Assembly: GCA_039030515.1 (NCBI GenBank)
Contig: JBCCEA010000033.1
Coordinates: forward strand, 1-42,056
From: Myxococcota bacterium
GTDB lineage: Bacteria; Myxococcota_A; Polyangia; Polyangiales; Houyiibacteriaceae
Direction: 5' to 3'
Length of the DNA stretch: 42,056 nucleotides
Under the pieces are notes generated by a model. It saw nothing but the letters and a program-made list of their open reading frames with translations. It was not told the DNA's origin and did no database searches. A program made the position numbers and the translations under genes. Below are positions 16,108 to 40,070 of the stretch, one piece after another. Numbering within the stretch: position 1 is the first letter of the stretch; each line of letters starts with the position of its first letter.

Positions 16108-16324
16108 GCAGCTCCCAGATTGTTCCCCAAGTCGCCGTACAGATCGAGTTGTTGACGTCAACCCGGGTCAAGAACCTCCTGGAAGAATCGTCTGCGATAC
16201 TATTTGAATGGGCGGCCACCGTGCATCTAGGTCGGACAAACCTGCACCTGGGTCCGACTAACGACCACCAAAGGAGGCCTCCGGTCGGCCGACTTCAGGC
16301 AGGGACGTGTGCTAGATCTCCCAG

Positions 16325-24692: not shown

Positions 24693-26342
24693 TTAGCGTT
24701 GCAGACTGGATACACGCATGGTGTGCAGGAGTTCGGTCAAAGCCTCGCGTAGAACCGGGGTCGCTTCACCAGAACCAAGGCGGTAACCACCGGTCGCCCT
24801 TCGGCTGGGGCGAGACCCTTCTTTCCGAATTTCTTCTTCCGCAAACCATACCGAAAGCGTCTGTCCCTCTTCGGCCTCAAAAAGTAACTCTGCTCGTCTC
24901 CCGTCCGATGCGAGCTGACTCGATTTCCAAACAAGCCCTTTGAAAGGCGCTCTAGCGATAAGGCGTTCCAGGCGCCTGAGAACACTGCCCTTTGCTGCGC
25001 CGCTTGAGAAGGGTACGACCAATCGCTCGCCCAGCGCCTCCAACTGCGATACGAGGATTTGAATAATTTCTGCAGCAGTAACGCAGGTATGCTCGTCCAA
25101 AGGGGCCATCAAAGCAGCATCAGAAAACGACCTAGAGCCACAAAACTCTACACTGAACGAAAACGACTCAAACCGCGCAAATACCGAGCGATGGTCTCCA
25201 GCGTTACCGAGCCGGACTATGAGCTTGGTCGAACTTGTCGCTTTTGAAACGACCGCAATTCCAACTCCGGCTTCGTCACTGCGTGCAGACGAGCGGATCA
25301 AGTCAAAGGGCACTTCCGCTGAGGAAAACGATGTGATCAGTCGCTCTACAACGGGACGCAGCCAGTGTCCGGCAAGCTTCAGCGATGAGTCTTTCTCACG
25401 CAGCAGTTCTGCACTGATCGGCTGAAACTCCTCCAGCCCATAGAAGTTTGCGTACGTTTCATACACGCCAGAGCATCGATCATTTAGGATGCATTCTCTG
25501 CACGATGGCTTTTTTATCTTATCCCTTTTTTTTACTAAATACTTATTCCACGGCTTGCTCAATCGATCATCTGCGTCGATCGCTACAGTCTCTGTAGTCT
25601 CTCCATCGTGGTGAATGATGGACGCAAGCTCTGGAACAATGCACGGAGGAAGGTTCCCGATATTCACGTCGAACCCCGGACTAAAGTTGGTCTGCATCTC
25701 CCTTAAGGGCGCAGCGAGATCTGAATAACGCGGAATCGTTCGGCGCAGCTCCTCTTCCGTACGGATGCCTGCATCGAGGGGACGCATCATATCGAGATGC
25801 AGCTGTGTCACACCAAATGGCTGAACGAGATCCGCAAATGCCGGGACAGATGCGTAATTTGATTGGACAACGCACATATTCAAAGTGATCGTTTGTCCTG
25901 CACGATGAAGCAGTTCCAAAGAGCGTTTGATGCGGTCAAAAGAGCGTGGCCGGCCGGTGGTCGCTTCGTGAGCGTCCTTGGTTGCCCCCTGAAGCGAAAT
26001 ACGAAACGAAAGCGGAGCGCCGATCGCCAGTAGCTGGTCGACAAACCAAGCACGCGATGTTTTTACGCCGTTGGTGAAGATCACAATCTCCTCAAAACCG
26101 AGATCGGTCGCGTGACGTACCACGTCAAAGAAGGTGGGCTGCAGCGTAGGCTCACCTCCAAGGAGGGTCAGCTTTCGATGCCCTCGCTCAAAAGCATCTG
26201 AAATTTGCTTGAGAATCGGCTGCAGAGGTAGTGGACGAGCATCACCCATCTCGGTTCGCTGACCGCTGACGCAAAACACACAGCGGTTGTTGCAAAGATG
26301 GCCAAGCTGTATCTCGACCTGGCGTTCAGGTTCCACCGGCAA
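24693..26342 (-). CDS. Radical SAM protein with partial SPASM-type Cys cluster and extra C-terminal domain (peptide-maturase-like)
   Basis: CNNRCVFC (CxxxCxxC), GGEPT, FTNG, NLPPC, CRECILNDRCSGVY; about 230 aa further C-terminal extension. Confidence 0.92.
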   Translation of the reverse strand: MPVEPERQVEIQLGHLCNNRCVFCVSGQRTEMGDARPLPLQPILKQISDAFERGHRKLTLLGGEPTLQPTFFDVVRHATDLGFEEIVIFTNGVKTSRAWFVDQLLAIGAPLSFRISLQGATKDAHEATTGRPRSFDRIKRSLELLHRAGQTITLNMCVVQSNYASVPAFADLVQPFGVTQLHLDMMRPLDAGIRTEEELRRTIPRYSDLAAPLREMQTNFSPGFDVNIGNLPPCIVPELASIIHHDGETTETVAIDADDRLSKPWNKYLVKKRDKIKKPSCRECILNDRCSGVYETYANFYGLEEFQPISAELLREKDSSLKLAGHWLRPVVERLITSFSSAEVPFDLIRSSARSDEAGVGIAVVSKATSSTKLIVRLGNAGDHRSVFARFESFSFSVEFCGSRSFSDAALMAPLDEHTCVTAAEIIQILVSQLEALGERLVVPFSSGAAKGSVLRRLERLIARAPFKGLVWKSSQLASDGRRAELLFEAEEGQTLSVWFAEEEIRKEGSRPSRRATGGYRLGSGEATPVLREALTELLHTMRVSSLQR

Positions 26343-26397: not shown

Positions 26398-27135
26398 TCA
26401 AGAAACTAGAGATGGTTCTTTGAGCCGTGCGACCACTTGCTCTCCGAAGAAATGCTCATCGAGAAACTCATGAGCAAACTCCTCCCCAAAGATGCGAGAA
26501 AGCACCTTTTTCTCTTTCTTATTCGCACGCATTGCGGCCAAGTAAGCTCGAACTGCAGACATGCGGCACGCCACCTCCTCGGAGCGTGAGAGAAGCGCAT
26601 CAAACCCGTCGACCACCCTTTCTACGGCGCGCATGTGCCGCTCCGGATCTCCGCTGCGCACCAAAATTGCCTGGGCAGATAGATGGCCTTCACAAAATGA
26701 AGGCATATCCAGGTCGGTAGTCGAGTCGCCTAGGATTCTTCGCGCATCGAGCAAGAGCGCGTCACCAGTCGATTCGGCCTGACTCAGTGGCGAGAGGTCG
26801 AGTACATGAATCGCGACCTTCTGACCAAATCTCACGTAGTCGATCGCCAGCAGCGGTGCTCCGCAAGTCAGGGAGGGAATGCCGAGTACGGTGAGAGACT
26901 GCATGGCTCCTGATCCGATGCAGATATGCAGTCTTCCAAGCGCGGCATTGCCGTGGAAGATACGCGTCTGGAGCATGACCTCGTGGCCCTTCACCCATCC
27001 CACTTTTGAGTCAAAACCCGAAGGCAACGCCAGTGAACGCATATGGTGCTTTGCCACGAGCCTGCTCAAACTCGCTTGGGCGCAATCCTGCTCAGAAGCC
27101 ATGTGTCCACACAGGATACAAGAACTTGAAGACAA
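26398..27135 (-). CDS. Ferredoxin-dependent bilin reductase (PcyA/pre-PcyA-like)
   Basis: RLHI, PLLAIDYV, LDLSPL, MPSFCEGHLS, MRANKKEKKVLSRIFGEEFAHEFLDEHFF parallel recalled PcyA motifs (RKMHLE, PMFGCDLV, ADLSP, NDKTRRVLEKAFG); follows a heme oxygenase. Start 27135 or ATG 27102. Confidence 0.85.
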   Translation of the reverse strand: MSSSSCILCGHMASEQDCAQASLSRLVAKHHMRSLALPSGFDSKVGWVKGHEVMLQTRIFHGNAALGRLHICIGSGAMQSLTVLGIPSLTCGAPLLAIDYVRFGQKVAIHVLDLSPLSQAESTGDALLLDARRILGDSTTDLDMPSFCEGHLSAQAILVRSGDPERHMRAVERVVDGFDALLSRSEEVACRMSAVRAYLAAMRANKKEKKVLSRIFGEEFAHEFLDEHFFGEQVVARLKEPSLVS

Positions 27136-27246
27136 ACCCTACCTGGTTCGGCTCCGTGCTGGGTCCGCAGCAGCACTATAGAGATGCTGCCTCAGCAGGC
27201 TGAACTCTCTCGGTATTGGGACCACGGCAAGCATGAGCGCAGGCGG

Positions 27247-27870
27247 TTAGTCGTGTGAATTTGTGGACTCTGACGATCCCGAGCGTTGGGATCCGATCTG
27301 TTCAAACGCAGCACCGACATCACGGAATGTATCCTTTGCCGCGGCGATAGATCGATGTATCTCATCAGTGGAATAAGGTGCAGCATCCAGGAACGACTTG
27401 ACTCGACGCCATTGAGTCTTAGCTCCTTTGACGTGATCCGAGTAGAAATGAGTAGCGTCTCTAGGCAAGTCGAGCGCTTTCTTGAGTCGAGGTCCGAGCA
27501 CCAAAGCACCTAAACTCGATCCCTCGAGTACGTAACATCGCCCCATCCACTCTGCTCTATCGGGCTTCCAAGAACACCCGTGAGACCGATGCAAGTTTGT
27601 AGCGCCGGGGTATCGATCGAGTGTCTCTTTTAAGTACTCGAGATCTTGACGAAGCAGCGCACTACGGAAGGGCGCGGGATGTGGTGCTTCGGGAAGCGCG
27701 GATTCGAGTTTTTCAAAGAAAACAAGCCAAACACACAAGTGCAGCGCATACTCGGCGAGGTCGATTTCGCCTTTGGCGAGTCGAACGGAAAACGATAGAT
27801 TTTCTACCCACTCATGCTGTGCACGAGTCTCGTGGCGGAGAGTGGCAGAAAGACTATCTACACACTCCAC
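27247..27870 (-). CDS. Biliverdin-producing heme oxygenase (BphO/HemO-like)
   Basis: LRHETRAQHEWVE (proximal His), RSALLRQDL, distal helix YVLEGSSLGA, AAAKDTF. Confidence 0.93.
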   Translation of the reverse strand: MECVDSLSATLRHETRAQHEWVENLSFSVRLAKGEIDLAEYALHLCVWLVFFEKLESALPEAPHPAPFRSALLRQDLEYLKETLDRYPGATNLHRSHGCSWKPDRAEWMGRCYVLEGSSLGALVLGPRLKKALDLPRDATHFYSDHVKGAKTQWRRVKSFLDAAPYSTDEIHRSIAAAKDTFRDVGAAFEQIGSQRSGSSESTNSHD

Positions 27871-27873
27871 GTA

Positions 27874-28350
27874 CTAGGATTCCTGCCATTTTTGCACTTT
27901 TTCAGCATAGTCATCGAGGTACTTCCGAAGCGCACGATAGTCGGCACCATCTAAACGCTCTTCTGCCTTTGATCGCAGCGCATCGATAAAATCCTGAATC
28001 ATCACAGGAGGATAAAGCGCACAGAGCAAATCTGAGAACCACTTGGAACAAGCCTCTTGGAAGAAACTAAGATCTTCTCGAACATAGGCTTGGGCCGCAA
28101 AGCGAAGGATTTGAGCTGCATGCACTCGAATCTCGGTCTGACATTCTTGAGCAGTCAAATGCACTTCATGCTTGCTCAGCAGAACAGAGAAAGTGGCTTC
28201 AACCACATCGGCCTCTGCAGACTCCACACGCCTCATGCAATCAAGTCGGCTTCCCATGTTCGACGCGTATGCCCGAAACGCCCCTTTCTCAGATTCCGAG
28301 AGAAAGCGCCCTTCTGCTCCTCGAACAAGATCATTTAGTGTTTTGTTCAT
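27874..28350 (-). CDS. Phycobiliprotein-like globin (BBAG / allophycocyanin-like)
   Basis: 158 aa; AEGRFLSESE, RLDCMRRVESAEADVV, ILRFAAQAYVREDLSF..KWF resemble phycobiliprotein motifs; GAGGA RBS. Confidence 0.8.
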   Translation of the reverse strand: MNKTLNDLVRGAEGRFLSESEKGAFRAYASNMGSRLDCMRRVESAEADVVEATFSVLLSKHEVHLTAQECQTEIRVHAAQILRFAAQAYVREDLSFFQEACSKWFSDLLCALYPPVMIQDFIDALRSKAEERLDGADYRALRKYLDDYAEKVQKWQES

Positions 28351-28425
28351 TTTATCTTCCTCTCACGCCGCGATTCATACTGTCGCGAATCATATCGCTA
28401 CCTAAAGACTGTCGAACACGCGCTC

Positions 28426-30147
28426 TCAATTTTGCCTAAGAAAATTCACGGTGCCCCCCTTGGTCAACCAAACGAGTTCTGCTTTGGTGCCTACAGCGGC
28501 AGCCAGTGGTTGCGCAAAACGAGTTTGTGCGATCCGCGCTGTTGAAGGAGCGATGGAGCACAACACCCCACCGGGGGTCACACCGATGAAATTGGCCCCG
28601 TCACAAGAGAGCGAAAGCATGTCCACCGGAATGATCTGTGCAGCCTCTTTTGTAACTAAGGTCCAGCGCAAAGGATCGGCTGTGTCGCTCACCATGAGAT
28701 TCATCTGCTCGTAGTGTCCGACCAGTCGGAGCGGTTCAATGCTTAGCGGCCATTGTTCGATGGGTTCTGTCGAAGAAAAGATCTGAAAAAAGCGATTAGA
28801 ATCTGCATGTTGCACTGCAACACAAGGCAAAGATTCTGGGCCACAGAACGTGATGCCGACTGCACCAGAGTCTTCCGCCATCAATCGTCGTTTGCGTCCA
28901 TGATGAAGGCAGTAGGCACCCCCACGTTCTACGATGCCCAGCGCTCCATCTTGAGAAACCGCAATTCGAACTGGACCTTCGACCGCCTGCTGAATCAAGG
29001 ATCCACTATTGTCGTGCAGCGTGACCCTATCTCCCTGGGTCACCGCCCAGAATCTGCCGGAAGCAGCAACGTCGCAGACGCTCGCCAGCGTATCTTGGTA
29101 GCGACCACGTCGATCAAAGCGCTGAACGCTTTTGCCAGCACGCACCAGAACTTCACAGCGGGTCACGGCAAGGCCGGTTGCCCCGGAGACGAAGGCAGGC
29201 CATCCGGGCTTTTCCAGTTGCTGACACTCCTTGGAGAGCGCCTCGCGAAGGGCAGCCGCCCAGGACTCTGCCGTTGCAAACCTTTCATCCGGCGACTTCG
29301 CAATAGAACCCATCACCACTTTGGTGAGCTCTTCAGGAATCCATCCGGGGAGCTTGGGCACGCTGTGCAGGTGCTGATGGAGCAGTTGCTTTTGGTTTCC
29401 TACAAAAGGTCTCGCTCCGGACAACAATTCGAACAGCATGATCCCCAGCGCATAGATATCGACGCGGTGATCGTATCGATCATAAAACTGTTCAGGCGCC
29501 ATGTACGCAGGCGAGCCCACTGCAGAATAGTTTCCGCCGGCAGTGCCAAGGACCGAAACTCCGAAATCACCTACCTTGGCGGTTAGGCCATGTTCTCGTC
29601 TATTTAGTAAAATATTCTCGGGCTTGAGATCCCGATGAATCAAGCCTCTCGCGTGCGCGAAGGCGACCCCCTCTCCCGCCTGAAGCAAGAGCTCTATCGA
29701 CTCCACTACAGACTGATCTTGCAGGAGGAGATCTCGCAGTGATCCCGAGTCCATCAACTCGTAGACAAGAAAGCGACTCATACCGTCGATAAAGACATCG
29801 TAGCACTCTAAAATATGCGGGTGTTTCATTTCAAAGAGCACGCCGAGCTCTCGAAGAAAACCACTTCCTCGGGCTTCATCGCGCATGTACTCTTTGAGGG
29901 CCACGAGGCGACCACTGGAGCGATCGACCGCTCGATACACCCGTGCACTCGCTCCGCGACCGATCAGGCGTTCAACCTCGTAGCGTTCACCGAGGGTTGC
30001 CCCTGCCGAAGCGCTGGGTAGGACTGCGCTATTTAGACGAGCTCGCCGCCGGCGATTGCCGAGAGAATATCGTCTGGAGCTCGCTTTTGCGACACCCAAG
30101 TTCCCACTACTTGGATGCGGCTTGCCTGCCCGAGAAGAAAACGACAT
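28426..30147 (-). CDS. Hanks-type Ser/Thr protein kinase with beta-rich C-terminal domain
   Basis: IGRGASARVY, VALK, IHRDLKPENIL, DFG, GSPAYMAPEQ, DIYALG. Start uncertain because it overlaps the V4R gene. Confidence 0.93.
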   Translation of the reverse strand: MSFSSRAGKPHPSSGNLGVAKASSRRYSLGNRRRRARLNSAVLPSASAGATLGERYEVERLIGRGASARVYRAVDRSSGRLVALKEYMRDEARGSGFLRELGVLFEMKHPHILECYDVFIDGMSRFLVYELMDSGSLRDLLLQDQSVVESIELLLQAGEGVAFAHARGLIHRDLKPENILLNRREHGLTAKVGDFGVSVLGTAGGNYSAVGSPAYMAPEQFYDRYDHRVDIYALGIMLFELLSGARPFVGNQKQLLHQHLHSVPKLPGWIPEELTKVVMGSIAKSPDERFATAESWAAALREALSKECQQLEKPGWPAFVSGATGLAVTRCEVLVRAGKSVQRFDRRGRYQDTLASVCDVAASGRFWAVTQGDRVTLHDNSGSLIQQAVEGPVRIAVSQDGALGIVERGGAYCLHHGRKRRLMAEDSGAVGITFCGPESLPCVAVQHADSNRFFQIFSSTEPIEQWPLSIEPLRLVGHYEQMNLMVSDTADPLRWTLVTKEAAQIIPVDMLSLSCDGANFIGVTPGGVLCSIAPSTARIAQTRFAQPLAAAVGTKAELVWLTKGGTVNFLRQN

Positions 30148-30695
30148 TGAGGGTCCCCCTGACTACGACACGAAATTTCCACTGCCTCCAATTCTCGACC
30201 TGCGAGTTTTCCAACGATCGAAGCGAGCAATCCACTGACCAGATGATCCGTAGGCCGTCCGATATTGCCGACTGAAGCGCTGTATATGGCCTCATCGACG
30301 ATCGCCTCCAGAAAGCCTTTCTCTTTTAGATCGAAACTCAAATCGAGCGAACCCCAACCATAAAGCCCCCACACTCTTCGGAGAATGTGTAGATAAAAGC
30401 CTAGCGGTAGGTCTTTGGTATCGCGATTGTAAAAGGACCGAATCTCAGCTTCGTGCTGCTTCATGAACTGAGAGCCCCACCAACGTCCGACGGAGTAGAG
30501 AATCACTCCGGACGCGGCGCCAGCTTCATCTTCTAAACCTCGGTGCAGTCCCGTGATCAAGTCTTCTGGGAGCGCCAAAAGTCGAACGCCCGAGGGGCTT
30601 CGCAACACACCGGTGGACACGTTGTGTTCGCTAAAATACTGCTCTGGCCGGAAATGATTGCGACTCAGGATCACCGGCTCATTGTTTTGCTGCAT
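30033..30695 (-). CDS. V4R-domain protein
   Basis: YSVGRWWG, YGWGSL, GLLASIVGKLAGRELEAVEISCRSQGDPQCRFLLG. ATG 30695 lies 2 nt after the globin stop. Confidence 0.92.
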   Translation of the reverse strand: MQQNNEPVILSRNHFRPEQYFSEHNVSTGVLRSPSGVRLLALPEDLITGLHRGLEDEAGAASGVILYSVGRWWGSQFMKQHEAEIRSFYNRDTKDLPLGFYLHILRRVWGLYGWGSLDLSFDLKEKGFLEAIVDEAIYSASVGNIGRPTDHLVSGLLASIVGKLAGRELEAVEISCRSQGDPQCRFLLGQASRIQVVGTWVSQKRAPDDILSAIAGGELV

Positions 30696-30697
30696 TA

Positions 30698-31201
30698 TCA
30701 AGCCGCCTTTCGCTCTGACGGGCGTCCAAGTGCACGCCGCATTTCTTCCACCACCACCTCCAAGTGAGGCACAAGCTCCGCTGCGTCCGGATCGGGTAGC
30801 GTACGCTCGACCAGACCCAAGAAATGCTCGAAGCAGGTAAGGGTTCGCTCGCGATTCGTGAGTGCAAATAAGATCGACCGCAGCCAAACAGCGAGCTTTT
30901 CGTTTACGAAGTCCGGATCGCGCATCAACGTTGCTAAAGACGCATACCGATACGCCATCGCATAGTCACGCTTGGCTCGATCGTAACTGTCCTCACCGTG
31001 CTCTGTGGCCATCTCGGGAAACTTTTCGCGCATAAAGCGATCCATTTCTGCGAGAAGCGCATCTTCTGCCCGCTCGGCAGCGTCCAAGATCTCAAGCCGT
31101 TGCTGCAGTCCTGCGGCGTAGCCTCTGAGTTGCTCCTCTTCGAGTTCAGAAAAATAGCGTCCTTCGGAATGAGTCAGCATATGCGCTAGGTTTCTATTCA
31201 T
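30698..31201 (-). CDS. Phycobiliprotein-like globin (BBAG)
   Basis: SEGRYFSELEEEQLRGY, AKRDYAMAYRYASLATLMRDPDFVNEKLAVWL; ATG 31201 follows a GGGAGG RBS; 167 aa. Confidence 0.87.
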   Translation of the reverse strand: MNRNLAHMLTHSEGRYFSELEEEQLRGYAAGLQQRLEILDAAERAEDALLAEMDRFMREKFPEMATEHGEDSYDRAKRDYAMAYRYASLATLMRDPDFVNEKLAVWLRSILFALTNRERTLTCFEHFLGLVERTLPDPDAAELVPHLEVVVEEMRRALGRPSERKAA

Positions 31202-31202
31202 C

Positions 31203-31523
31203 TCATCCCTCCCACTGGATGCTATCGAGTATGCTTCGGACCGAACGCCCCATTTGTGCCGAAGTGGGCTCCGGCGGAGCTTCACCGGTCCATCGCACCA
31301 GCCTAAGCACCTGGGTGACTGGAGTGCGTGCGATCTCACCCAACCTAGGCGGAGTCACGAGACGGATCGGTGTTCCCGCCCAGTGGACCGACCACATCGC
31401 ATTTGCGACCGTTTGGCGCGGCTTTGCCTGGAGCAAACGCTGACGTTTCTTGTCTTTTTTCAGCGTGCTCGCCTTCCCAGGCAGCGGCACGCGCACTTCG
31501 CGCGCAAAGGGTCTTACAGCCAC
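31203..31523 (-). CDS. Small basic hypothetical protein in the bilin operon
   Basis: 106 aa ORF that fills the gap, starting 1 nt after the V4R stop and ending 1 nt before the globin start. Confidence 0.5.
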   Translation of the reverse strand: MAVRPFAREVRVPLPGKASTLKKDKKRQRLLQAKPRQTVANAMWSVHWAGTPIRLVTPPRLGEIARTPVTQVLRLVRWTGEAPPEPTSAQMGRSVRSILDSIQWEG

Positions 31524-31524
31524 G

Positions 31525-32169
31525 TCACACCTTCTTCAACACATCGCCAGCGGTGGCACCTTCATCCAGCCAAAATTCAACGGCATCAATACGTTTTTGT
31601 GAACCGACGATGAAGCGACAGTACGTAGCACCCATTGCGTAACACTGAATTTCGATTCCGCTCAAGCTACGACGAGCAAGGTGAGTCAGTACCCCCGCAA
31701 ATAGCCCTGCATAGACAAAGCACACCGGTTTACCTACCTCACCAAGAGACTTCGCTACCGCCGAATCATAGAGATCGATAAGGATAAGCCCTTGTTCTTG
31801 CTTGCTCTCAAAATCGATTTGCCAGCTCCCCCATCCCATCGTCTGAAGTGGCCACCACCACTGTTCCATGACGAACTGGAGGTTCATGCCCTGAACGTCG
31901 CGCCCAAACTCGCGGTACATACTCGATTCGAACCGCTTTACATCGCCGAGGCCCCATTCAAACCCGCATTTGTAAAGCACAACGGCCGCGGCATCGCCGA
32001 CTTCGTCTTCCAATCCAGCGACCAGACCGAGAATAAAATCCTCAGACGCATAAAAGGCTCGCTGATCATTGGAGCAGAGTACGGTGCCGTTTTCGTTATC
32101 GTAGCGAAAATAATCCTCTGAATTAAAATAGTTGTGCTTGATAGGCTGAGGCCCGATTACGACGCTCAT
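31525..32169 (-). CDS. V4R-domain protein
   Basis: YKCGFEWG, WWWPLQTMGWG, KPVCFVYAGLFAG, IEIQCYAMGATYCRF; AGGGGGA RBS. Confidence 0.93.
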   Translation of the reverse strand: MSVVIGPQPIKHNYFNSEDYFRYDNENGTVLCSNDQRAFYASEDFILGLVAGLEDEVGDAAAVVLYKCGFEWGLGDVKRFESSMYREFGRDVQGMNLQFVMEQWWWPLQTMGWGSWQIDFESKQEQGLILIDLYDSAVAKSLGEVGKPVCFVYAGLFAGVLTHLARRSLSGIEIQCYAMGATYCRFIVGSQKRIDAVEFWLDEGATAGDVLKKV

Positions 32170-32233
32170 GAAATCCCCCTCTTGAAATCCAGACTCTCAT
32201 AGAATCAATCCTCGCGTAAGAGCGAAAGGACGA

Positions 32234-32713
32234 CTACGCAGTTCGTGAGTCATTCAATACTTTTTGTACATCGACTTCAACATGCTGTAGCTGTCGAAGT
32301 ACGCTTCGAGTCATTATCTTTCCCGGAGCCAGCAACTCTTGTCCATTTACGGGATGGAGCAGTCGTTGCTCTGTACGTCTTCCAATAAGCGACTCTAAAT
32401 CTGCAGTGCGTTCGACATACAGACCTTCTGGCAGCTTGACGATAACCCCGTCATTGACCACTTTCGCTTGACAGGCGAGTCGGGAGGAACCGCAGGAACT
32501 GCCGATAAGGTCTAGGGTACGCACTTCGCGCTTGGTTCGAGGCGTCAGTGCATCGTTGCCGTGCTCGATGTAGACATGGCAGGTAGCGCAGAGTCCCCGT
32601 CCTCCACAGGCCATCTTCACCGGCACCTGTTCGGATAGCAGCGCCTGCAGCAGTTGATCGTGAGTCTTGACCTCAACAACGCGCGCGGTTTGAGCGAACT
32701 GAACCGCCTTCAC
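32234..32713 (-). CDS. 2Fe-2S ferredoxin-type protein with C-terminal extension
   Basis: CGGRGLCATC and SRLACQ; tail LIGRRTEQRLLHPVNG..GKIMTRS. GTG start overlaps the upstream TGA. Confidence 0.93.
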   Translation of the reverse strand: MKAVQFAQTARVVEVKTHDQLLQALLSEQVPVKMACGGRGLCATCHVYIEHGNDALTPRTKREVRTLDLIGSSCGSSRLACQAKVVNDGVIVKLPEGLYVERTADLESLIGRRTEQRLLHPVNGQELLAPGKIMTRSVLRQLQHVEVDVQKVLNDSRTA

Positions 32714-33063
32714 GGGCTCGCCTCTTCTCCCAAGAGTTTGCAAAGGACGGAGGAAGTAGAGCCTCGAACCGCGGGCCCCAACAGCACTTGAGGCACGGGA
32801 TCACGAAACACTCGTCGCTCGGGTCGGAAGGGGTCTCGTCGCGTGACGGTGCTGATGGCATGCGGTCTTGTACGACGAGGTGCGGCCTCGAACTCAGAGG
32901 AGTGCGGCTGAGACGGCTCTTCTTTTTTGGGCGCAGATTCTAAAGGAGCTGGAACCTCATGCACTATGGGCGCTGAGGCTTCTGTGCTTGGCATCGCCTC
33001 AGAGAGTGCTGACGACATTCCGTCAAGCAAAGCAAGCAGTTGACTATTTGGTTCACTACCCAT
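32710..33063 (-). CDS. Hypothetical low-complexity protein
   Basis: Coupled at both ends (TGATG and GTGA overlaps) inside the operon. Confidence 0.6.
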   Translation of the reverse strand: MGSEPNSQLLALLDGMSSALSEAMPSTEASAPIVHEVPAPLESAPKKEEPSQPHSSEFEAAPRRTRPHAISTVTRRDPFRPERRVFRDPVPQVLLGPAVRGSTSSVLCKLLGEEASP

Positions 33064-33893
33064 CAAGCACTTCTCCTCTCAGGCTGAAAGAACGCGACCC
33101 TCTCGAGTCGGGCGCTCAAAGCCGGATCTGTTCGCTGCACGTCGAAATGCTCCGCATCCGGACAACGCGCATAGACCCTACCCAGAAAACCCTCCAGCCA
33201 TGCCCGAATCCTTGGAGCGAGCAAGACCGGATCGCCCTGCAACTCTCCAGATACGTACCCATCGAGGTTAAACTGAAGATCCCAGTGTTCCGTGGCCTCG
33301 TCTCCTGCACTAGTTAGCGCCTTCTTCAGATAGTTCCGGCGCACGGCTCCTCCGAGTAAGTCCGAATAGTTACGGGATGCTTGGTTGATAAGTCCGAGGA
33401 AGGCCGCATTGGGATTTTCTTTTGATTCCTCAAGAGCGTGGGACTCCTCGCGACTCAAAGGACTCTGCTGCGCCGACGCGGCTTGTGCTGAAGCTGCTTC
33501 CGTTATCGGCGTCGCTTCCGCTTCTGGAAAACTCTGCGGGAGCTCCGAGGTGCTCAGCGCCTCTGAGTGTGCAGCCCGCAGCGCTTCGACCTGCTCGCCC
33601 AACGAATGCAGGAGCGCTGCAACATCCAGTGCATGCTCACCGAGTACGATGAGGACATGATCGCCGATGAGCGAGAACACGAGACTGCTTTGTAGGTATT
33701 CAAGTCGCACAAAGGACATCGACGGGGTGGCGGAGCGGAATACCGGGCGTATCGTTTGCGCTAAGGTCCGCAAAGGCACGATCGTGTCATCGAAGCGAAC
33801 CTGGAGAACCCGTCGCTCCGTGCCGACCAAGGCCGCAGCGCGCACGTGGGGCTCGAGAACGATGGACTGCAAGAAGTCTATTGCGACGCGCAT
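33063..33893 (-). CDS. Protein with N-terminal Roadblock/LC7 (MglB-like) domain
   Basis: PHVRAAALVGTERRVL...VRLEYLQSSLVFSLIGDHVLIVLGEHALDVAALL fits the Roadblock strand pattern; GAGGAG RBS; near mglA-like gene. Confidence 0.6.
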   Translation of the reverse strand: MRVAIDFLQSIVLEPHVRAAALVGTERRVLQVRFDDTIVPLRTLAQTIRPVFRSATPSMSFVRLEYLQSSLVFSLIGDHVLIVLGEHALDVAALLHSLGEQVEALRAAHSEALSTSELPQSFPEAEATPITEAASAQAASAQQSPLSREESHALEESKENPNAAFLGLINQASRNYSDLLGGAVRRNYLKKALTSAGDEATEHWDLQFNLDGYVSGELQGDPVLLAPRIRAWLEGFLGRVYARCPDAEHFDVQRTDPALSARLERVAFFQPERRSA

Positions 33894-34501
33894 GCTCGCT
33901 CCTCAGCAAATTCTCGAAGTTGAGGATCATCGACCGGTCGTTCTTTCGGGTCGACAAAGAACACCAGCGTCTCGCCCTCAGCGCGCGTGAGCAGTGCGGC
34001 CATATCGGAGCCGTTGAGGGTTCCTCGTTGGAGCTCGCCTAAGGAGAGGATGTGGCCCGCCGCCATACCCAGCTCGGAAACCATGGTCACTGCACGCCTC
34101 CAGTCGACGGGAACATGGTTGTCTCCGACTGCGTTTTTGATCGTGCCCTTCGCATCGACTCGCAGCTCCGCGATCACTCCGGTGAGAGAGGGTGATGACG
34201 TCTCAGAGCTCGACGAACGTCCCGAAACCGGGTTCAGGAGCAGCGACTGCACGAAGCGCAGGTGGGCGGAGTGAAGCGACGGAATCAGCGCCGATATTCC
34301 TTTTTCTTGAAAAGCAAGCGTGGCCGCAGCTGGGATGGTGCTCACCTGCTTCTTCAACAAATCACTGCCGCGATAGACTTGGGTGACCGTCATCGCTTCG
34401 GGGTCTAGAAATAGCTGGCTGACCACGCGCAGCTGGGTGTCGCCGACCGTCACGATCGACTCCTGCTTTTGTTCCTTGTTCGGATCGACTTGCGCACTCA
34501 T
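33878..34501 (-). CDS. Protein with C-terminal Roadblock/LC7 (MglB-like) domain
   Basis: GVIAELRVDAKGTI...LGMAAGHILSLGELQRGTLNG...LVFFVD; ATGA overlap with the GTPase stop. Confidence 0.6.
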   Translation of the reverse strand: MSAQVDPNKEQKQESIVTVGDTQLRVVSQLFLDPEAMTVTQVYRGSDLLKKQVSTIPAAATLAFQEKGISALIPSLHSAHLRFVQSLLLNPVSGRSSSSETSSPSLTGVIAELRVDAKGTIKNAVGDNHVPVDWRRAVTMVSELGMAAGHILSLGELQRGTLNGSDMAALLTRAEGETLVFFVDPKERPVDDPQLREFAEERACASQ

Positions 34502-36405
34502 GTTCCATTCCGGTCCGTCCGCGAGGCACTGCTCGAGCGCCACCAGCTCTTCTTCGCCTCAATACGCTCCCGAAGTTCTTGCATTGATTCCGCAATAAGG
34601 TTGACCTGATGTCCAAGCTGGCTGGAGCGTTCCTCGATGGCGCTCTCGAGACGTGACGCATGCTGCGCTAGGTGCTCGAGTCGCTGGGAAGCGTCGGTGT
34701 CGACGCCGTCGGTGCTCTCTTTACGCGTTCCGATTTGTTCCGCCATGTTCTCGACGGCTTTGGTCACGCCTTCTTCGGTGGAGTCTAGAGCAACCCCAAC
34801 CCAGGAGATTACCTGTTTTGGAATGGTTCCAATCAGTTTCTCCTGCATTTCTTCCAGCGCTTTTCGAAAGAATCCTTTCACATCGGTCGCTGCCGATGCA
34901 AAACGCTCCTCCAGCGCTTCAACCCGCTTTTCTACTTTGAGGACAACCCCTTGAATTTTAGATACCTGGCTGCCTGTACTCTTTGTTTGTTTCGTATTCT
35001 CACGAACTTCTGCATGAATCTCGACCTGATTCTTACCGAGCTGATTCATCGACTTTGCGAGCGTCTCGAGAGACTCTTTAACCTTCGACTTATCGGATAG
35101 CGTGCGTACATCGGCCTCCAGTTTGCCGAGCAATTCCCCCTGCCGTTTGGTCTCCTCCTGCATTGCAGACTGCGTTTCTCCCACATCGCGCACAGCACTC
35201 GCCAGCGAATCAATGCTCTCGCGCAGCGCATCTATCCCGGGATTTGATGCGTTTTGTCCCAGTAGAGATTCGAGCTTTTCAACGACTCTGAGATTCTGCT
35301 CTTTTTGCGCCTTCTCCAGCTCTGCAGCGGTGCGATTCATCGCTTCGCTCAGAGAAGACTCCACCTGATTGAGACGCTGAGAAAGTACGCGACTGGAGGC
35401 GATCGCTTCTCGCAGCTGAACCTCGATGGCCACCTGTTCGCTGGAACTATTCATGACTGCCGCCGCAACCGCCGTCATATTGGTTTGAGAGCTCTTAGCC
35501 ACCGCCGCCGCCGGTGAAGCGCTGCCCGAAACTCCGAGAGACACCCCGGAGCTGGATGTTGCCGGATTCAGGTGACCGGAGTTCGACCCGCCGGTGGACA
35601 TCGAGCCGTGGCTTTGGGCCGGCGCCGCAGGAGAAGGGCGGAATTCCGATTGCATGGCCTCTTGTTTGGCCCGTATCCGCGGAGCCAGAGGCACTGGCTG
35701 CCTGTCGACTTTGGGATCTTCAGCCTCTGAACTCGGCCCGTCTTCTGCCGTCAACTCTTGACGCAACGTCTCACCGTCAAGGCCACTTTCAGTTCCTGCA
35801 GAGATCACCTCTTTGCTGTCCCGAACCGATCCCCGTATGTGCTTCAGCACCGCATCGACAACCGTCCGAAGGGTTTCAAATACGCCTTGTCCCTTGAACG
35901 CAACCGATTCGGTGGCGATGGCATCTTGAAGCCCGAGCGCCTCGAGAAGCGCTTTGGGTTCCATGGCATCCGGTAAATCCCGCTTGTTCAGCTGTACCAC
36001 CATCGGAAGATCATCGGGCAGTCCATTGGCGGCGAGATGCTCTCGCAAGTCTTCCAAAGTCTTACGATTTCGGTCGAGCGCTGCGGCTTGCGAGTCGAGC
36101 ACCAGCACCACGCCGTCTGCAGCGGCGAGCACCCGCTTGCGTGTTTCCGAATATTTCGCCTGACCGGGTACGGTGTAGAGCTGTACCTTGACGTCACATC
36201 CGTTTACCTTGCCCAGCTCAAAGGGGAGATAGTCGAAAAACAGGGTTCGATCGCCGTCGGTATTGAGCGACATCATCTCCCCGGTGCGTCCCTGATTGGA
36301 GCGCTTCTTGATCTCCTCCAGATTCGTGGTTTTTCCGCTAAGTCCGGCCCCGTAATATACGATTTTGGTTTCGAGAACTCGCTTCTTCACGTTTAGGTAG
36401 GGCAA
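34498..36405 (-). CDS. MglA-family small GTPase fused to a long Ser/Ala-rich linker and coiled coil
   Basis: KIVYYGAGLSGKTTNL, DRTLFFD, LYTVPGQ, DGVVLVLDSQ, NKRDLP closely follow M. xanthus MglA; about 440 aa extra C-terminal region. Confidence 0.93.
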   Translation of the reverse strand: MPYLNVKKRVLETKIVYYGAGLSGKTTNLEEIKKRSNQGRTGEMMSLNTDGDRTLFFDYLPFELGKVNGCDVKVQLYTVPGQAKYSETRKRVLAAADGVVLVLDSQAAALDRNRKTLEDLREHLAANGLPDDLPMVVQLNKRDLPDAMEPKALLEALGLQDAIATESVAFKGQGVFETLRTVVDAVLKHIRGSVRDSKEVISAGTESGLDGETLRQELTAEDGPSSEAEDPKVDRQPVPLAPRIRAKQEAMQSEFRPSPAAPAQSHGSMSTGGSNSGHLNPATSSSGVSLGVSGSASPAAAVAKSSQTNMTAVAAAVMNSSSEQVAIEVQLREAIASSRVLSQRLNQVESSLSEAMNRTAAELEKAQKEQNLRVVEKLESLLGQNASNPGIDALRESIDSLASAVRDVGETQSAMQEETKRQGELLGKLEADVRTLSDKSKVKESLETLAKSMNQLGKNQVEIHAEVRENTKQTKSTGSQVSKIQGVVLKVEKRVEALEERFASAATDVKGFFRKALEEMQEKLIGTIPKQVISWVGVALDSTEEGVTKAVENMAEQIGTRKESTDGVDTDASQRLEHLAQHASRLESAIEERSSQLGHQVNLIAESMQELRERIEAKKSWWRSSSASRTDRNGT

Positions 36406-36481
36406 AAACAGGCTCCTCTCAGAATCTCGCTATCTAATCATCTCACGACACACCAGGACTCAAAGCGAAGTAGCAGAACCA

Positions 36482-37417
36482 CTAAGTTTGAGACTCATCG
36501 ATGAGTCGCAGAGATTCCATAATCAAATGTTGCGTATTTCGCGTGATCGTAACTTCGTCACATTCTGCGCCTCGTTCGTAAACGAAACGACCTTTTGAAA
36601 TCTGTAGTGCGCTTAGGAAACCCTGTTCGCCTGTGGAGTCACCACAGAGGGCGTGACTTACTTGGCCCTGCCGGAAATACACCTGTGCAGCGTCATCTCC
36701 CGAGAGGCGAAGGCAGCCTGTTTCCATGTTCTGACCAAAAAGCTGCACAAGATCAGTAAGAAGACCCGGGTGTAGCTCTCCCTTCATGAGGACACGAGCG
36801 CCCTTGTCTGCGCTTGCCTCCGTGAGCGTTCCGAGCTCGTCAGCGACACCTGGGGGCGGCGCAACGGACTCGATGGTCGCAAGCAAGGCCCCGTAATCCG
36901 TGTCGTCGCCGGCGAACGCCTGCAGGAATTCACCGACCAACTGTCCTTCCTCGGGATCTTGGGCGGCGTGCGACGGACCTAAGAGTGCGGATGCATCGGT
37001 TCGAAACGCTTCGTCCGGGATCGAGAACAGTTCACCGGGCTGAGTTTGACCGTGTTGACCGTTGCGGCTTGGGCTGCTGGGAGAAGGCACCGCGCTTAGA
37101 GAGTCACGCGGAAGTTCGGAGCGATCGGCAAATGGGATCAGCTTGGAGGGACTCGGCGGCGTGTAGGGAACCATCAGCTGCAGGTCGTCAAAAACCGACA
37201 CGTTCGGTGCACGATCGCGATCGATGATGCATTGACGGATTTCCGTCACCGCCGCTGCAAGGCGCTGGCTTGCAAGCTCTACGTCGATACCACCAAGCTG
37301 CATCAGACTGGCGACACGCTTCATCGGTGGAATCGAAATAATGGCGAGCGCCTCGAGATTGCTGCTTCTCAGCGCTTTGTCGAGGTGTTCAATTTGCGAG
37401 GTCCAGTCGTGGGGCAT
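36482..37417 (-). CDS. DUF4388 (PatA_N-like) domain protein
   Basis: C-terminal LMKGEL..LTDLVQLF..ETGCLRL..VYFRQGQVSHA..GEQGF..GRFVY..LIMESLRLIDE. Start 37417 preferred over 37438 given the promoter position. Confidence 0.85.
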   Translation of the reverse strand: MPHDWTSQIEHLDKALRSSNLEALAIISIPPMKRVASLMQLGGIDVELASQRLAAAVTEIRQCIIDRDRAPNVSVFDDLQLMVPYTPPSPSKLIPFADRSELPRDSLSAVPSPSSPSRNGQHGQTQPGELFSIPDEAFRTDASALLGPSHAAQDPEEGQLVGEFLQAFAGDDTDYGALLATIESVAPPPGVADELGTLTEASADKGARVLMKGELHPGLLTDLVQLFGQNMETGCLRLSGDDAAQVYFRQGQVSHALCGDSTGEQGFLSALQISKGRFVYERGAECDEVTITRNTQHLIMESLRLIDESQT

Positions 37418-37453
37418 GAGACTTCGAGCAGGTTCCATACGACGCGAATACTT

Positions 37454-37469
37454 CGCAAGACACGTGCCT
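37454..37469 (-). promoter_or_regulatory. Sigma-54 (-24/-12) promoter
   Basis: Minus strand reads AGGCACGTGTCTTGCG, matching GGCAC-N5-TTGC with exact GG-N10-GC spacing, just upstream of the first operon gene. Confidence 0.8.
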
Positions 37470-37521
37470 ATCCAAGTGCACTAAAGATCATTCAGCTTTT
37501 GCAAAAACGACTTTGTGCTTT

Positions 37522-37594
37522 GTTCGACCAACCGAACGCCCGCGGTTCTTTTCGTTCGACTGCTCGAACGTTCGAGTGTTCAAGCGTTCGAGCA
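37522..37594. promoter_or_regulatory. Candidate upstream activator sites (GTTCG-N6-CGAAC palindromes)
   Basis: Palindromes at 37522-37537 and 37554-37569, 32 bp apart; also a 10 bp inverted pair at 37561-37570 and 37585-37594. Confidence 0.6.
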
Positions 37595-37614: not shown

Positions 37615-39069
37615 CTAGTCCGACTTGGAGGGTTCCATCGAGTAGCGCTTCATCTTGCTCCAAAGCGTCGATCGGGAGATTCCTAGGACGGTAGCCGCTT
37701 CTTTGAGGGAGCCTCCCGAAAGTTCAAGAGCACGCCGGATTTGAACGCGCTCCATTCTTTCAAGCACCTCGGTCTTCGCGTCCTCAAGTCGTATGGGTAG
37801 CTTGGTGGTGATGTGGTCTTTTTCCTGCTTTGCATCGAAAAGCGGATCAAGCCGCAAATCGTCGCTGAGGATCTGCCCGTCTTCTGCGAGCAAGACCGCT
37901 CGGTCCATGACGTTGCGGAGCTCCCGCACGTTCCCCGGCCAAGCGTGCTGCAGTAGCGCTTCTTTGGCCTCCATCGTGAGTTGCGGCAGCGGCAGTCCGT
38001 GTTCGATCTGAGAAAGCTGTAGAAACGACTCTGCCATCGGCAAAATATCTTCAACCCGTTCTCGCAGAGGCGGAATACGGATGATGACGGTACTCAACCG
38101 ATAGAATAAGTCGCGCCTCAATCGACCTTGCTCGATCGCAACTTGAGGATCGAGATTGGTTGCGGCGAGAAAGCGAACGTCGATATCGCGCCGCTCGTCA
38201 CTTCCAATAGGGAAAAAACACTTTTGTTCCACGGCTCTGAGTAGCTTTGGCTGAAGATCGATATCGAGTTCGCACAGCTCATCGAGCAGAAGGGTTCCGG
38301 TATCTGCCGATAAGAACAAGCCCCGCCGCTCTCGATCCGAGCCGGTGTAGGCGCCGCGAACACTTCCGAAGAGTTCTGCTTCCACCATCGCACTCGGAAA
38401 CGCTGCGACGTTGACTCGAACAAAGGGCTTGTTTGCGCGCTTGCTGCTCTCGTGGATAAAGCCGGCTACGATTTCCTTACCCACCCCGCTTTCACCGACG
38501 ATCAGTGCGCTTGAGTTGGACTGAGCGACCTTACGCGCCACCGAAAGAGTTTTGCGGAACGCCTCGCTCACCGCGATCATCGACTCCGAATGAGCTGCGC
38601 GCTGTATCCGCAGCTGAATCGTACGACTTGCCAGCGCAAGTTCGATTCGCTGTACGACCGAATCGAGATCCATCGGCTTGTGAATGAAATCCATCGCGCC
38701 AAGGCGCATGGTCCGAACGACAGCGTCCTGGGAATCGTCTCCGGAAACCACGAGAACCACCGGTTCGCTATCGAGACGACGTAAGCGCTTAAGAAACTCG
38801 TACCCGTCGAGATCAGGCATGTGAATATCGAGCAAAACCACGTCGAAATGAGCTGTCTGCAGGCGGCTCAACGCGTCGGCACCGTCTGAAATCCATTCGA
38901 CTTGATAGCCGCGTCGCGACAGGGCCCGAGACATCGCCTGTGCGAGTAAAACCTCGTCCTCGATGACGAGCATGCGGACCCCATCAGCAGAGGTGTCTCG
39001 GCAGACGGAGGATGCTGTTCGGTGCTCGGCTTCCACCACGGAACCTTGGGGGTTGGGGGATTTGGTCAC
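37615..39069 (-). CDS. Sigma-54-dependent response regulator (REC-AAA+-Fis HTH, NtrC family)
   Basis: IEDE, LLDIHMP, FIHKP; GESGVGKE; ELFG..GAYTGS; LLLDE; RRDLFYRL; WPGNVREL; AATVLGISRSTLWSKM. Confidence 0.96.
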   Translation of the reverse strand: MTKSPNPQGSVVEAEHRTASSVCRDTSADGVRMLVIEDEVLLAQAMSRALSRRGYQVEWISDGADALSRLQTAHFDVVLLDIHMPDLDGYEFLKRLRRLDSEPVVLVVSGDDSQDAVVRTMRLGAMDFIHKPMDLDSVVQRIELALASRTIQLRIQRAAHSESMIAVSEAFRKTLSVARKVAQSNSSALIVGESGVGKEIVAGFIHESSKRANKPFVRVNVAAFPSAMVEAELFGSVRGAYTGSDRERRGLFLSADTGTLLLDELCELDIDLQPKLLRAVEQKCFFPIGSDERRDIDVRFLAATNLDPQVAIEQGRLRRDLFYRLSTVIIRIPPLRERVEDILPMAESFLQLSQIEHGLPLPQLTMEAKEALLQHAWPGNVRELRNVMDRAVLLAEDGQILSDDLRLDPLFDAKQEKDHITTKLPIRLEDAKTEVLERMERVQIRRALELSGGSLKEAATVLGISRSTLWSKMKRYSMEPSKSD

Positions 39070-40070
39070 GTCAGGTCATCGTTTGCCGGTGCGTTTGGAG
39101 ATGATACACGGGCTCTATGTCGCCGAGAAGAGACAGCGACCGGCGCCTGTCCTGGTCTGAACGCGTGGGGCGACAGGCTCCGCCGCTGAGCCTGTCGCCG
39201 TATTTTCGCGCTTTTTGAGGCGAATCGACGATGTTCTCGATTCGGTTTTGGGTAAGTTAAGGTGGTTTGGTCCGCTTGATCGCTCACGGTGCTCGGTAGT
39301 CGCTCCTCGGCGCCATCTGCTGGAAGCGGGGCATTTGGTTCTTCGGTCGCCGCAAGATCGCTTGAGTCCCCCGCTTCGTCTGGGCTCTCGTCAGGACCGG
39401 CGGGCTCTTGATCCATTGGTGCGTCCGGTGAAACGGCATCGCCAGATTGGGAATCCGGTGAAACGGCATCGCCAGGTTCGGCATCTTGTTGAACAAGCTG
39501 GCAGACGCCGTGTTCGTCGCAATATTGTTCGTCAGCGCACGAGGGATTGCATAGCGAAACGCATTGACCCGACCGGCATACTCGACCGTTCCGGCACTGA
39601 GGATCACAGGCTTCGATGCAAAAACCTCGAAAGCAGGTCATTCCAGGACTGCACTCTGGAACGCAGGGCGGATTCATCTGTACCGGATCTGGAAGAGCAA
39701 GTCCGACGTAGGCGACTAGAACCGATGCGCCCAATTCAGGTGTCCACCGATAGGAGAATACCGTGTCTCCCCCTAGCTCACAGGCTGCCTCGAACAGCTT
39801 TCGCTCACAGTGGAGTCGTGTCGCGTCCCTCAGGTGAGCCGGGGTCGACGCGTCGCGGTCGCACTTAACCTGAGCCATGGCTACCGGAGTCACCGTGTTC
39901 GGAGGTGGACTAAGAGGGTAGGATCGCACCCTGCAGTCTGCGGTTTGAGAGGGTAGAATCGTTTGAACGCTGTCGTGCGCTTTTGTCGTACATCCACTGA
40001 ATAGCGATCCGCAACAAGCAAGTGCGAGAATGCTTGCGCAGCGCCTACGTGTGACGTCCATGTCCACCAT
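39066..40070 (-). CDS. Putative lipoprotein with Cys-rich repeats and acidic linker
   Basis: Lipobox-like LFSGC; three Cys-rich units (CVPECSPGMTC, CDPQCRNGRVC, CNPSCADEQYC); 22 bp direct repeat at 39424 and 39454. Confidence 0.7.
   Translation of the reverse strand: MVDMDVTRRRCASILALACCGSLFSGCTTKAHDSVQTILPSQTADCRVRSYPLSPPPNTVTPVAMAQVKCDRDASTPAHLRDATRLHCERKLFEAACELGGDTVFSYRWTPELGASVLVAYVGLALPDPVQMNPPCVPECSPGMTCFRGFCIEACDPQCRNGRVCRSGQCVSLCNPSCADEQYCDEHGVCQLVQQDAEPGDAVSPDSQSGDAVSPDAPMDQEPAGPDESPDEAGDSSDLAATEEPNAPLPADGAEERLPSTVSDQADQTTLTYPKPNREHRRFASKSAKIRRQAQRRSLSPHAFRPGQAPVAVSSRRHRARVSSPNAPANDDLT

Follow-up and report, generated by a model that had tools for sequence, protein, structure and literature searches.

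Gene content and layout of the locus

The window analyzed in the current study is a stretch of 42,056 nucleotides (contig JBCCEA010000033.1, positions 1 to 42,056) from the metagenome-assembled genome (MAG) of a Myxococcota bacterium (G000; 4.08 Mb, 85% complete). On its minus strand, between 26398 and 37438, the listing of open reading frames (ORFs) showed 14 co-oriented genes in one unbroken, tightly packed run, in which genes for bilin synthesis and for globins related to phycobiliproteins stand together with genes for an MglA-type GTPase and two Roadblock-like proteins. The gene order given in a first-pass annotation of this DNA was borne out by the ORF listing, and all of its gene identities hold, by Pfam matches or, for the Roadblock-like pair, by predicted folds. 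The core of this operon and the type of its GTPase module are each known; their conserved union, and the Roadblock protein that bridges them, appear to be new.

Ten of the 14 genes were named by Pfam, and the four ORFs that had no Pfam match were all kept in other loci. Listed from the upstream end, the genes are:

36482..37438, minus strand: PATAN/DUF4388 protein, domain at residues 220-316 (Pfam PF14332, E 2.1e-14, 54 bits, cutoff 25)
34498..36405, minus strand: MglA-cc, with an MglA-family GTPase domain (residues 1-192; Pfam Arf/Ras-type), a Ser/Ala/Pro-rich linker and a helical, coiled-coil-like tail of ~300 aa
33878..34501, minus strand: RbA, 221 aa, N-terminal beta/helix domain and C-terminal Roadblock/LC7 domain (AlphaFold2 model), clade-specific
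33063..33893, minus strand: RbB, 276 aa, N-terminal Roadblock/LC7 domain (residues 1-114), disordered linker and C-terminal helical domain (AlphaFold2 model), ancestral cluster member
32710..33066, minus strand: small protein of 118 aa with motifs at both termini, found in the clade only
32234..32713 (ORF 32234-32743), minus strand: 2Fe-2S ferredoxin-like protein, Fer2 (Pfam Fer2, E 3.9e-10)
31525..32169, minus strand: V4R protein A, V4R-A (Pfam V4R, E 1.1e-17)
31203..31523, minus strand: small core protein of 106 aa with two FRxVxWxG-like motifs
30698..31201 (ORF open to 31339), minus strand: BBAG globin 1, with AKRD where phycobiliproteins have CXRD (Pfam Phycobilisome, E 3.2e-10; alignment to PDB entries)
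30033..30695 (start uncertain; ORF open to 30887), minus strand: V4R protein B, V4R-B (Pfam V4R, E 1.6e-10)
28426..30147, minus strand: Hanks-type Ser/Thr kinase with a C-terminal beta-propeller (residues ~314-573), in the position of SpkG (Pfam Pkinase, E 2.9e-48)
27874..28350, minus strand: BBAG globin 2, lacking the CXRD motif (Pfam Phycobilisome, E 5.1e-6, 27 bits, cutoff 22.2)
27247..27870, minus strand: heme oxygenase, HO (Pfam Heme_oxygenase, E 3.5e-19)
26398..27135, minus strand: bilin reductase (FDBR) of the pre-3 pre-PcyA type (Pfam Fe_bilin_red PF05996, E 5.7e-13)

The junctions are short. There is an ATGA overlap between MglA-cc and RbA, the reading frames of RbA and RbB overlap by 16 nt, and a GTGA overlap joins the 118-aa ORF to Fer2, whose start is likely the GTG overlapping the preceding stop codon. 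Four other junctions have gaps of 1-3 nt, and the largest gaps inside the run are 111, 76, 75 and 64 nt. For two genes the longest ORF probably begins too far upstream: globin 1 (31339, with 31201 the likely start) and V4R-B (30887, with 30695 the likely start). Base 37469 marks where a sigma-54-like promoter element ends; no gene ends there.

The GTPase module

The MglA-cc protein aligned over residues 3-192 with solved MglA proteins (E 4e-48 for Thermus 3t12_A to 8e-45). It has a P-loop, the TVPGQ motif (Thr for Asp in G3) and a switch-I Arg, in keeping with membership of the MglA family, for which Thr78 (PMC3000849) and Arg53 (PMC10933270) have been described as family residues. At 635 aa (538-739 aa in its orthologues), with ~440 aa past the GTPase domain, it is not a single-domain MglA of ~195 aa, and its tail gave weak matches to coiled-coil families. 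MglA-cc is 62-66% identical to its counterparts in three related loci (L042-L044), compared with 44-46% to the canonical MglA of its own genome. Since this genome keeps a separate mglB-mglA pair (contig C36, L121:671-1818) and two more MglA paralogues (contigs C8 and C15), the MglA-cc switch appears to be dedicated to the cluster. Orthologues of the PATAN protein were found in the same three loci. The window protein had no Response_reg match in Pfam, and so does not show the PATAN-receiver architecture of the PatA type.

RbA and RbB had no sequence match in Pfam (including PF03259), NCBIfam or the PDB, and were assigned from AlphaFold2 models (RbA, 8-row alignment, mean pLDDT 82; RbB, 7-row alignment, mean pLDDT 74). 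In the predicted model of RbA, the Roadblock domain at residues 103-208 gave a VIA Z score of 11.9 to 3kye_A (best Foldseek E 3.9e-5), and residues 95-208 could be superposed on MglB (6hjm_A) with Z 10.5 and a root-mean-square deviation (rmsd) of 3.7 over 111 aligned residues. The predicted N-terminal Roadblock domain of RbB matched more closely, with Z 13.7 to 7f8m_A for residues 1-109 (best Foldseek E 6e-6), and Z 13.4, rmsd 2.5 and 113 aligned residues to MglB (6hjm_A) for residues 1-113. For both proteins the Foldseek probability of a Roadblock fold was 1.00, and LAMTOR matches ranked level with MglB matches. The VIA and Foldseek matches listed for the two models were taken up by their Roadblock domains. 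Comparison of RbA with RbB by hhalign gave no signal. A complex prediction for RbA, RbB (1-118) and MglA-cc (1-195), run without controls, scored 0.01 (mark 0.32) and weighs neither way.

Roadblock dimers also act as scaffolds, and RbA and RbB could form a Ragulator-like scaffold that is neither a GTPase-activating protein (GAP) nor a guanine nucleotide exchange factor, with MglA-cc and its coiled coil localizing a complex of the globins, V4R and Fe-S proteins. The level ranking of LAMTOR and MglB is consistent with such an arrangement, as are the long helical tail of MglA-cc, which suggests a structural role, and the presence of RbB without a clustered GTPase in cyanobacteria. It is nevertheless considered quite unlikely, because MglA-cc keeps the catalytic residues through which MglB-type GAPs act, and the characterized Roadblock-type partners of MglA described in PMC3199381 are GAPs.

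Conservation of the module and its linkage to the bilin cluster

Related loci were collected by scanning 185,579 species genomes with an alignment of V4R-A, which gave 572 relatives, the best 80 of which were kept; a metagenome scan with V4R-A added two loci. The close loci (seven from genomes) were chosen by V4R-A identity of at least 66%, and not by gene content. Four of the seven extend 5 kb or more beyond Fer2 on the upstream side, and all four have an MglA-type gene; six extend 1.4 kb or more (L039, L041-L045), and all six have RbA. In the seventh, L040, the sequence reaches only 164 bases past Fer2. RbA and RbB are also encoded at the metagenome locus L119, which in addition includes the C-terminal tip of MglA-cc. 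Neither MglA nor RbA was present at any cyanobacterial locus, or at any of the eight more distant non-cyanobacterial loci whose upstream sequence spans 5 kb or more. In a quick tree of V4R-A, the eight loci with RbA, together with L040, formed one clade of nine rows (Myxococcota/Polyangiaceae) with an SH-aLRT of 98. The first-pass annotation had made its reading depend on the Mgl block being conserved beside bilin clusters elsewhere, and this was found in every close locus with enough upstream sequence. A weak GTPase match upstream of the V4R pair in locus L063 was rejected as another switch, as it is LepA.

The neighborhoods of FDBR genes gave a second sample (20 stretches around 12 FDBR matches in 11 other genomes). 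Fer2 and V4R genes were found at the locus in four of these genomes (G370, G215, G391 and G156), with FDBR nearby or, in G156, on another contig. The whole block was present in G370 only. This genome is a complete 9.9-Mb chromosome from another family, and both flanks of its block are unrelated to those of the window. Its gene order is PATAN, MglA-cc, a 410-aa fusion of RbA and RbB, Fer2, V4R, globin, V4R, globin, FDBR, kinase and HO.

The RbA profile matched two of 401 genomes of the phylum (G000 and G370), in both cases inside the cluster, and 38 representatives among 1.84 billion proteins. Six of these 38 also matched the RbB profile and are thus natural RbA-RbB fusions; the two genes are fused in L043 and L045 as well. 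The distribution of RbB is wider. Outside the clade, an RbB homologue adjoined Fer2 in 12 of the 23 loci in which Fer2 lies directly upstream of V4R-A with room further upstream (single-pass profile), and an iterated search found RbB in ~30 loci, cyanobacteria included. The earlier proposal of a dedicated GTPase/kinase output is not supported as it was put: the kinase and RbB are ancestral to the cluster and occur in cyanobacterial loci lacking MglA. RbA has no match elsewhere in the 401 genomes.

According to PMC4316618, PATAN, MglA and MglB genes often form clusters by themselves, and besides MglA-cc the genome studied here encodes two further MglA paralogues and a canonical mglBA pair. A polarity module of PATAN, MglA and Roadblock genes might thus have landed upstream of the bilin cluster and be co-transcribed with it with no functional coupling. 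Several observations make such a chance association very unlikely: within the 401 genomes RbA was found inside these clusters only, it is fused in several lineages to the core protein RbB, the genes keep their order and close spacing in different families although the DNA on either side of them changes, and the tree is consistent with a single retained origin. Functional coupling of the two modules is considered highly probable.

Bilin synthesis genes and globins

The complete BBAG/pre-PcyA set (FDBR, HO, Fe-S protein, two V4R proteins and globins) lies on one strand within 6.4 kb, and the same set is present in G370. The likeness to BBAG/pre-PcyA clusters that was recognized in the first-pass annotation also extends to the type of reductase. 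When aligned with PcyA by phmmer (a weak alignment, E 3.4e-4), the FDBR has Asp at 105, Thr at the position of His88 and Cys at that of Glu76. The pre-3 signature described in PMC10151467 is the presence of Asp105, the replacement of His88 by Thr and the lack of Glu76, and the window enzyme carries these pre-3 pre-PcyA residues. In the same paper the pre-3 enzymes are assigned to Myxococcales MAGs, and their genes cluster with HO, an Fe-S protein, two V4R proteins and BBAG globins; the products of a pre-3 enzyme are given as PΦB and PEB (PMC10151467; PMC13446030). Genes for FDBR were found in 14 of the 401 sampled genomes of the phylum and in none of the 23 from the same family, and a word-indexed homologue search with the FDBR returned one near-identical MAG protein only.

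In globin 1, and in all of its aligned close orthologues (BBAG-1), the Arg-Asp pair of the bilin pocket is kept. The globin of a more distant locus (L062) has CTRD, and the CXRD motif is attributed to 'some' BBAGs only in PMC10151467.

Fe-S protein, V4R pair, small proteins and kinase of the core

The Fer2 protein is 54-64% identical to those of the close loci. Pre-PcyA/BBAG clusters are characterized by a V4R protein from each of two published clades, A and B; the two V4R proteins of the window share ~28% identity and each has its own series of orthologues, with 49-57% identity for V4R-B. In V4R-A, four Cys residues are invariant across the alignment, and weak matches were obtained to the phenol-sensing V4R domains of PoxR/MopR; an Atlas search with V4R-A returned V4R clusters alone.

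The 106-aa protein is conserved in all nine close loci, and an iterated search gave 75 ORF matches among 82 loci; in the rows inspected it begins directly after V4R-A. A homologue of 91 aa is present in Oscillatoria sp. PCC 10802. This conservation rules out that the ORF is out-of-frame junk. The 118-aa ORF had no matches in an iterated search, and its gene call rests on position and on two short motifs, an N-terminal LLALLDGIE-like and a C-terminal RVRGSTS-VLA-F-W-like one, which are kept in an alignment with four other close loci. Both small proteins end in a similar motif, R-[GS]-[ST]-x-x-[VI]-L-x-x-F-x-W, and they may be distant paralogues.

The beta-propeller of the kinase matched Atlas structures with TM-scores of 0.65-0.79, the highest (0.79) being to a cyanobacterial kinase cluster with the same architecture. 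In the 80 loci closest to the query (L039-L118), a sample that may be biased, a same-strand Hanks kinase was found 3' of the V4R pair in 62 of the 67 loci with at least 4 kb downstream (within 6 kb; median distance 1.85 kb). In two loci, L049 and L052, the kinase is placed between Fer2 and V4R-A. These counts suggest that the kinase, at least, is usually present at such clusters. Rockwell et al. (PMC10151467) set aside the Synechocystis neighbors slr0150-0152 as often absent, and our results suggest that the kinase is more conserved than this remark implies.

Likely upstream regulator, promoter-like element and neighboring genes

Three further features lie upstream of the PATAN gene:

37615..39069, minus strand: NtrC-type sigma-54 activator with receiver, sigma-54 AAA+ and Fis-type helix-turn-helix domains (Sigma54_activat, E 3.9e-56; Response_reg, 2.3e-29; HTH_8, 9e-13)
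37521..37593, minus strand: TCGAAC/GTTCGA repeats, including the 14-nt palindrome CTCGAACGTTCGAG, read directly in the 176-nt spacer
37455..37469, minus strand: sigma-54 -24/-12-like element AGGCACGTGTCTTGC, ~17 nt before the PATAN start codon, with one mismatch to the consensus

The activator, whose gene falls outside the coordinates given in the first-pass annotation, is likely the transcriptional regulator of the operon. A gene for an activator with 43-45% identity occupies the same place and strand in L042 and L044, and these two loci have -24/-12-like elements in the same position. Repeats similar to those in the window precede the PATAN gene in L042, L043 and L044, and are possible candidates for activator binding sites. 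Control by sigma-54 is considered plausible rather than established, because the number of sigma-54 motifs in the window is at the level of chance. Scans for terminators and sigma-70 promoters gave no matches above the shuffled expectation.

Activators of the sigma-54 type were also seen near more distant myxobacterial clusters (L046, L049, L052 and L065), often on the opposite strand, and in L046 a histidine kinase was seen as well (L046:3588-4808).

Three other genes of the window were noted:

24693-26342, minus strand: radical SAM protein, 55 nt past FDBR, with HxsC-like matches far under the family cutoffs
39066-40070, minus strand: 334-aa ORF with a lipoprotein-like N-terminus and Cys-rich repeats
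12640-16161, minus strand: 1173-aa protein with an N-terminal receiver domain and C-terminal TPR repeats, an architecture resembling polarity/motility regulators

The radical SAM gene had no homologue in any related locus and was left outside the system. The 334-aa ORF, whose stop overlaps the start of the activator gene by 4 nt, had no family match and was not conserved in the related loci.

Proposed function of the operon

The proposals below on bilin binding, light sensing, GTPase regulation, input and output are built on the gene identities, folds, conservation, co-occurrence and fusions described above. The operon is best explained as a putative sigma-54-type unit in which an old sensor core has been joined by a clade-specific output module, and for this explanation in its entirety our confidence is slightly better than even. 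The old core, common to the cyanobacterial clusters of the slr0144 type, consists of RbB, Fer2, V4R-A, the 106-aa protein, a globin, V4R-B and the SpkG-like kinase. In the window this core is extended by a second globin, by HO and by the pre-3 FDBR, the last two of which would turn heme into a reduced bilin. The clade-specific addition consists of PATAN, MglA-cc, RbA and the 118-aa protein.

In the proposed pathway, the globins would hold the bilin non-covalently, and together with the V4R pair and the Fe-S protein would signal light or, if light is not the input, the state of redox or heme. The state of the sensor would then be passed on to RbB, which with RbA would form an MglB-like Roadblock dimer setting the GTP/GDP state of MglA-cc, and MglA-cc would act with the PATAN protein on polarity or on the type IV pilus motor. 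As a feedback, the kinase may phosphorylate a partner in the core, probably the Fe-S protein, as reported for SpkG; phosphorylation of ferredoxin 5 was lost in an spkG mutant (PMC11863333).

We propose that RbA and RbB together regulate MglA-cc, and that RbB connects the sensor to the switch as an adaptor, because RbB belongs to the core, RbA is always accompanied by RbB and has been fused to it repeatedly, and MglA-cc keeps the residues on which MglB acts. Regulation of MglA-cc by the Roadblock pair is somewhat favored on these grounds. The best guess for the output is polarity or the pilus, since PATAN domains bind PilB1 and PilC in Synechocystis (bioRxiv 10.1101/2021.06.11.447907), and PATAN-MglA-MglB neighborhoods are known.

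Light is put forward as the input only tentatively. The core might instead sense or handle redox, oxygen, heme, iron or a bilin as metabolite, with the GTPase module transmitting this state; in that case the ligand of the V4R proteins would be a small hydrophobic molecule, and the 2Fe-2S protein would act as a reporter or an electron donor. The weak match of V4R-A to the ligand-binding domains of phenol sensors fits such an input, and V4R/TRAPPC3 proteins are thought to bind ligands (PMC10933270). Neither globin has the cysteine for covalent attachment, the 2Fe-2S protein and the kinase persist in cyanobacterial clusters lacking HO or FDBR, and the functions of BBAGs are stated as unknown in PMC10151467. 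On the other hand, the dedicated HO and FDBR would yield a reduced bilin, whose well-known roles involve the absorption of light, the Arg-Asp pair is retained in BBAG-1 across the clade, and the role of the 2Fe-2S protein may simply be to reduce HO and FDBR. An input other than light is regarded as doubtful.

Several results weigh against the proposal of a bilin-based sensor core acting on a sigma-54-controlled GTPase module. The CXRD cysteine is absent from both globins and from the whole clade, and the BBAGs shown to bind bilin in PMC10151467 (BBAG-1/-3) carried CXRD. In three close loci (L041, L042 and L119) there is no FDBR beside HO. RbA and RbB are linked to MglB by predicted folds only, as comparison with the MglB of the same genome by hhalign gave probabilities of 0.3% and 0.1%. 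RbB occurs in cyanobacteria that have no clustered GTPase, and its ancestral role therefore need not involve one. The GTPase of L041 (4357-5505) is short (382 aa) with altered P-loop and G3 motifs, and no PATAN gene was detected upstream, which indicates that the module can decay; this locus may hold a decaying or pseudo-GTPase version of it. In a locus from Acidobacteriota (L048:6849-9482), the gene for a 373-aa PATAN protein shows translational coupling to Fer2 and an RbB-like gene, with no MglA. The survey of loci was limited to the best 80 of the V4R-A relatives, and the count of sigma-54 motifs in the window (2 found) compares with 2.9 expected.

The Acidobacteriota locus also has genes for a gas-vesicle protein and an ArsA-type ATPase just upstream.

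Cyanobacterial PcyA is regarded as having its source in BBAG/pre-PcyA clusters, which are also seen as relatives of phycobiliproteins; the function of the clusters is described as not known in PMC10151467. In the clade of the marine myxobacterial operon described here, such a cluster is tied to a signaling output that can be recognized, namely a PATAN protein and a switch of the MglA type. The two are connected by a Roadblock protein that the cyanobacterial versions have as well, providing a first testable idea of what these clusters signal to. It raises the questions of whether the Roadblock pair regulates the GTPase, whether light or redox state affects this, and whether the cyanobacterial RbB is an adaptor in the slr0144-type operon. 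The presence of the kinase, RbB and the 106-aa protein with its WxG motifs in the conserved core suggests a wider definition of the cluster than that published, unless the supplement of the 2023 paper already gives it.

Comparison with known systems

The pre-3 BBAG clusters of Rockwell et al. (2023; PMC10151467) have the same signature of an Fe-S protein, two V4R proteins, one or two globins, HO and FDBR. The cluster in the window differs from them in the upstream PATAN, MglA-cc, RbA and small-protein genes, and in globins that lack the CXRD cysteine. GTPases, MglA and Roadblock proteins are not mentioned in the main texts of PMC10151467 and PMC13446030, although the 2023 supplement, which has neighborhood figures, may show some of these neighbors.

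The Synechocystis operon slr0144-slr0152 likewise has a V4R pair, an Fe-S protein, a globin and a Hanks kinase at the 3' side; unlike the operon in the window, it has no HO, FDBR or GTPase module. Orthology to slr0152 (SpkG) and slr0148 is our assumption, taken from position in other cyanobacteria and from the gene order of the Synechocystis operon.

With MglA/MglB of Myxococcus and Thermus, the operon shares the GTPase domain with its TVPGQ motif and switch-I Arg, and adjacent proteins of Roadblock fold. MglB is a homodimer, whereas its counterpart in the window would be formed by two different Roadblock proteins as a heterodimer, both of them very divergent and with two domains each. The first-pass annotation knew of no characterized Mgl-coupled version of such a bilin-based system. 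For some MglA groups, a DUF4388/PATAN gene beside MglA and Roadblock genes has been described (PMC4316618). PatA-type regulators carry a receiver domain, and the PATAN protein of the window has none. No link to a bilin cluster is described in the available text of the two PATAN papers (PMC4316618; bioRxiv 10.1101/2021.06.11.447907), and in a literature search no paper was found that joins MglA with HO or a bilin reductase.

The actinobacterial conservons (CvnA-D) resemble the operon in their parts list: they too combine a small GTPase, Roadblock- or longin-type partners and a sensor or kinase in one unit, with a different type of kinase.

The likeness to the eukaryotic TRAPP core and Ragulator, as to the conservons, is one of parts list only. 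V4R is described as a prokaryotic relative of the Bet3/TRAPPC3 fold, and the TRAPP core as a longin heterodimer flanked by subunits of this fold, which is an exchange factor for Rab and binds the GTPase in a geometry like that of MglA/MglB (PMC10933270). The same study of Asgard archaea reports that in MK-D1 the genes of small GTPases are generally not in operons with such partners; it was the sole paper found in our literature search that joins V4R, Roadblock and GTPase, and it makes no mention of bilin. By analogy, the two V4R and two Roadblock proteins of the window could assemble around the Ras-like GTPase, with bilin-loaded globins and the Fe-S protein as the sensing input, giving a ligand-gated regulator; the ancestral half of the complex would consist of RbB and the V4R pair, which cyanobacteria have already. 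Such an arrangement is unlikely. If it were true, however, it would provide the first known output for BBAG clusters, and, in one co-transcribed unit, a tractable prokaryotic system for asking how small GTPases came under the control of Roadblock/longin and Bet3-fold subunits.

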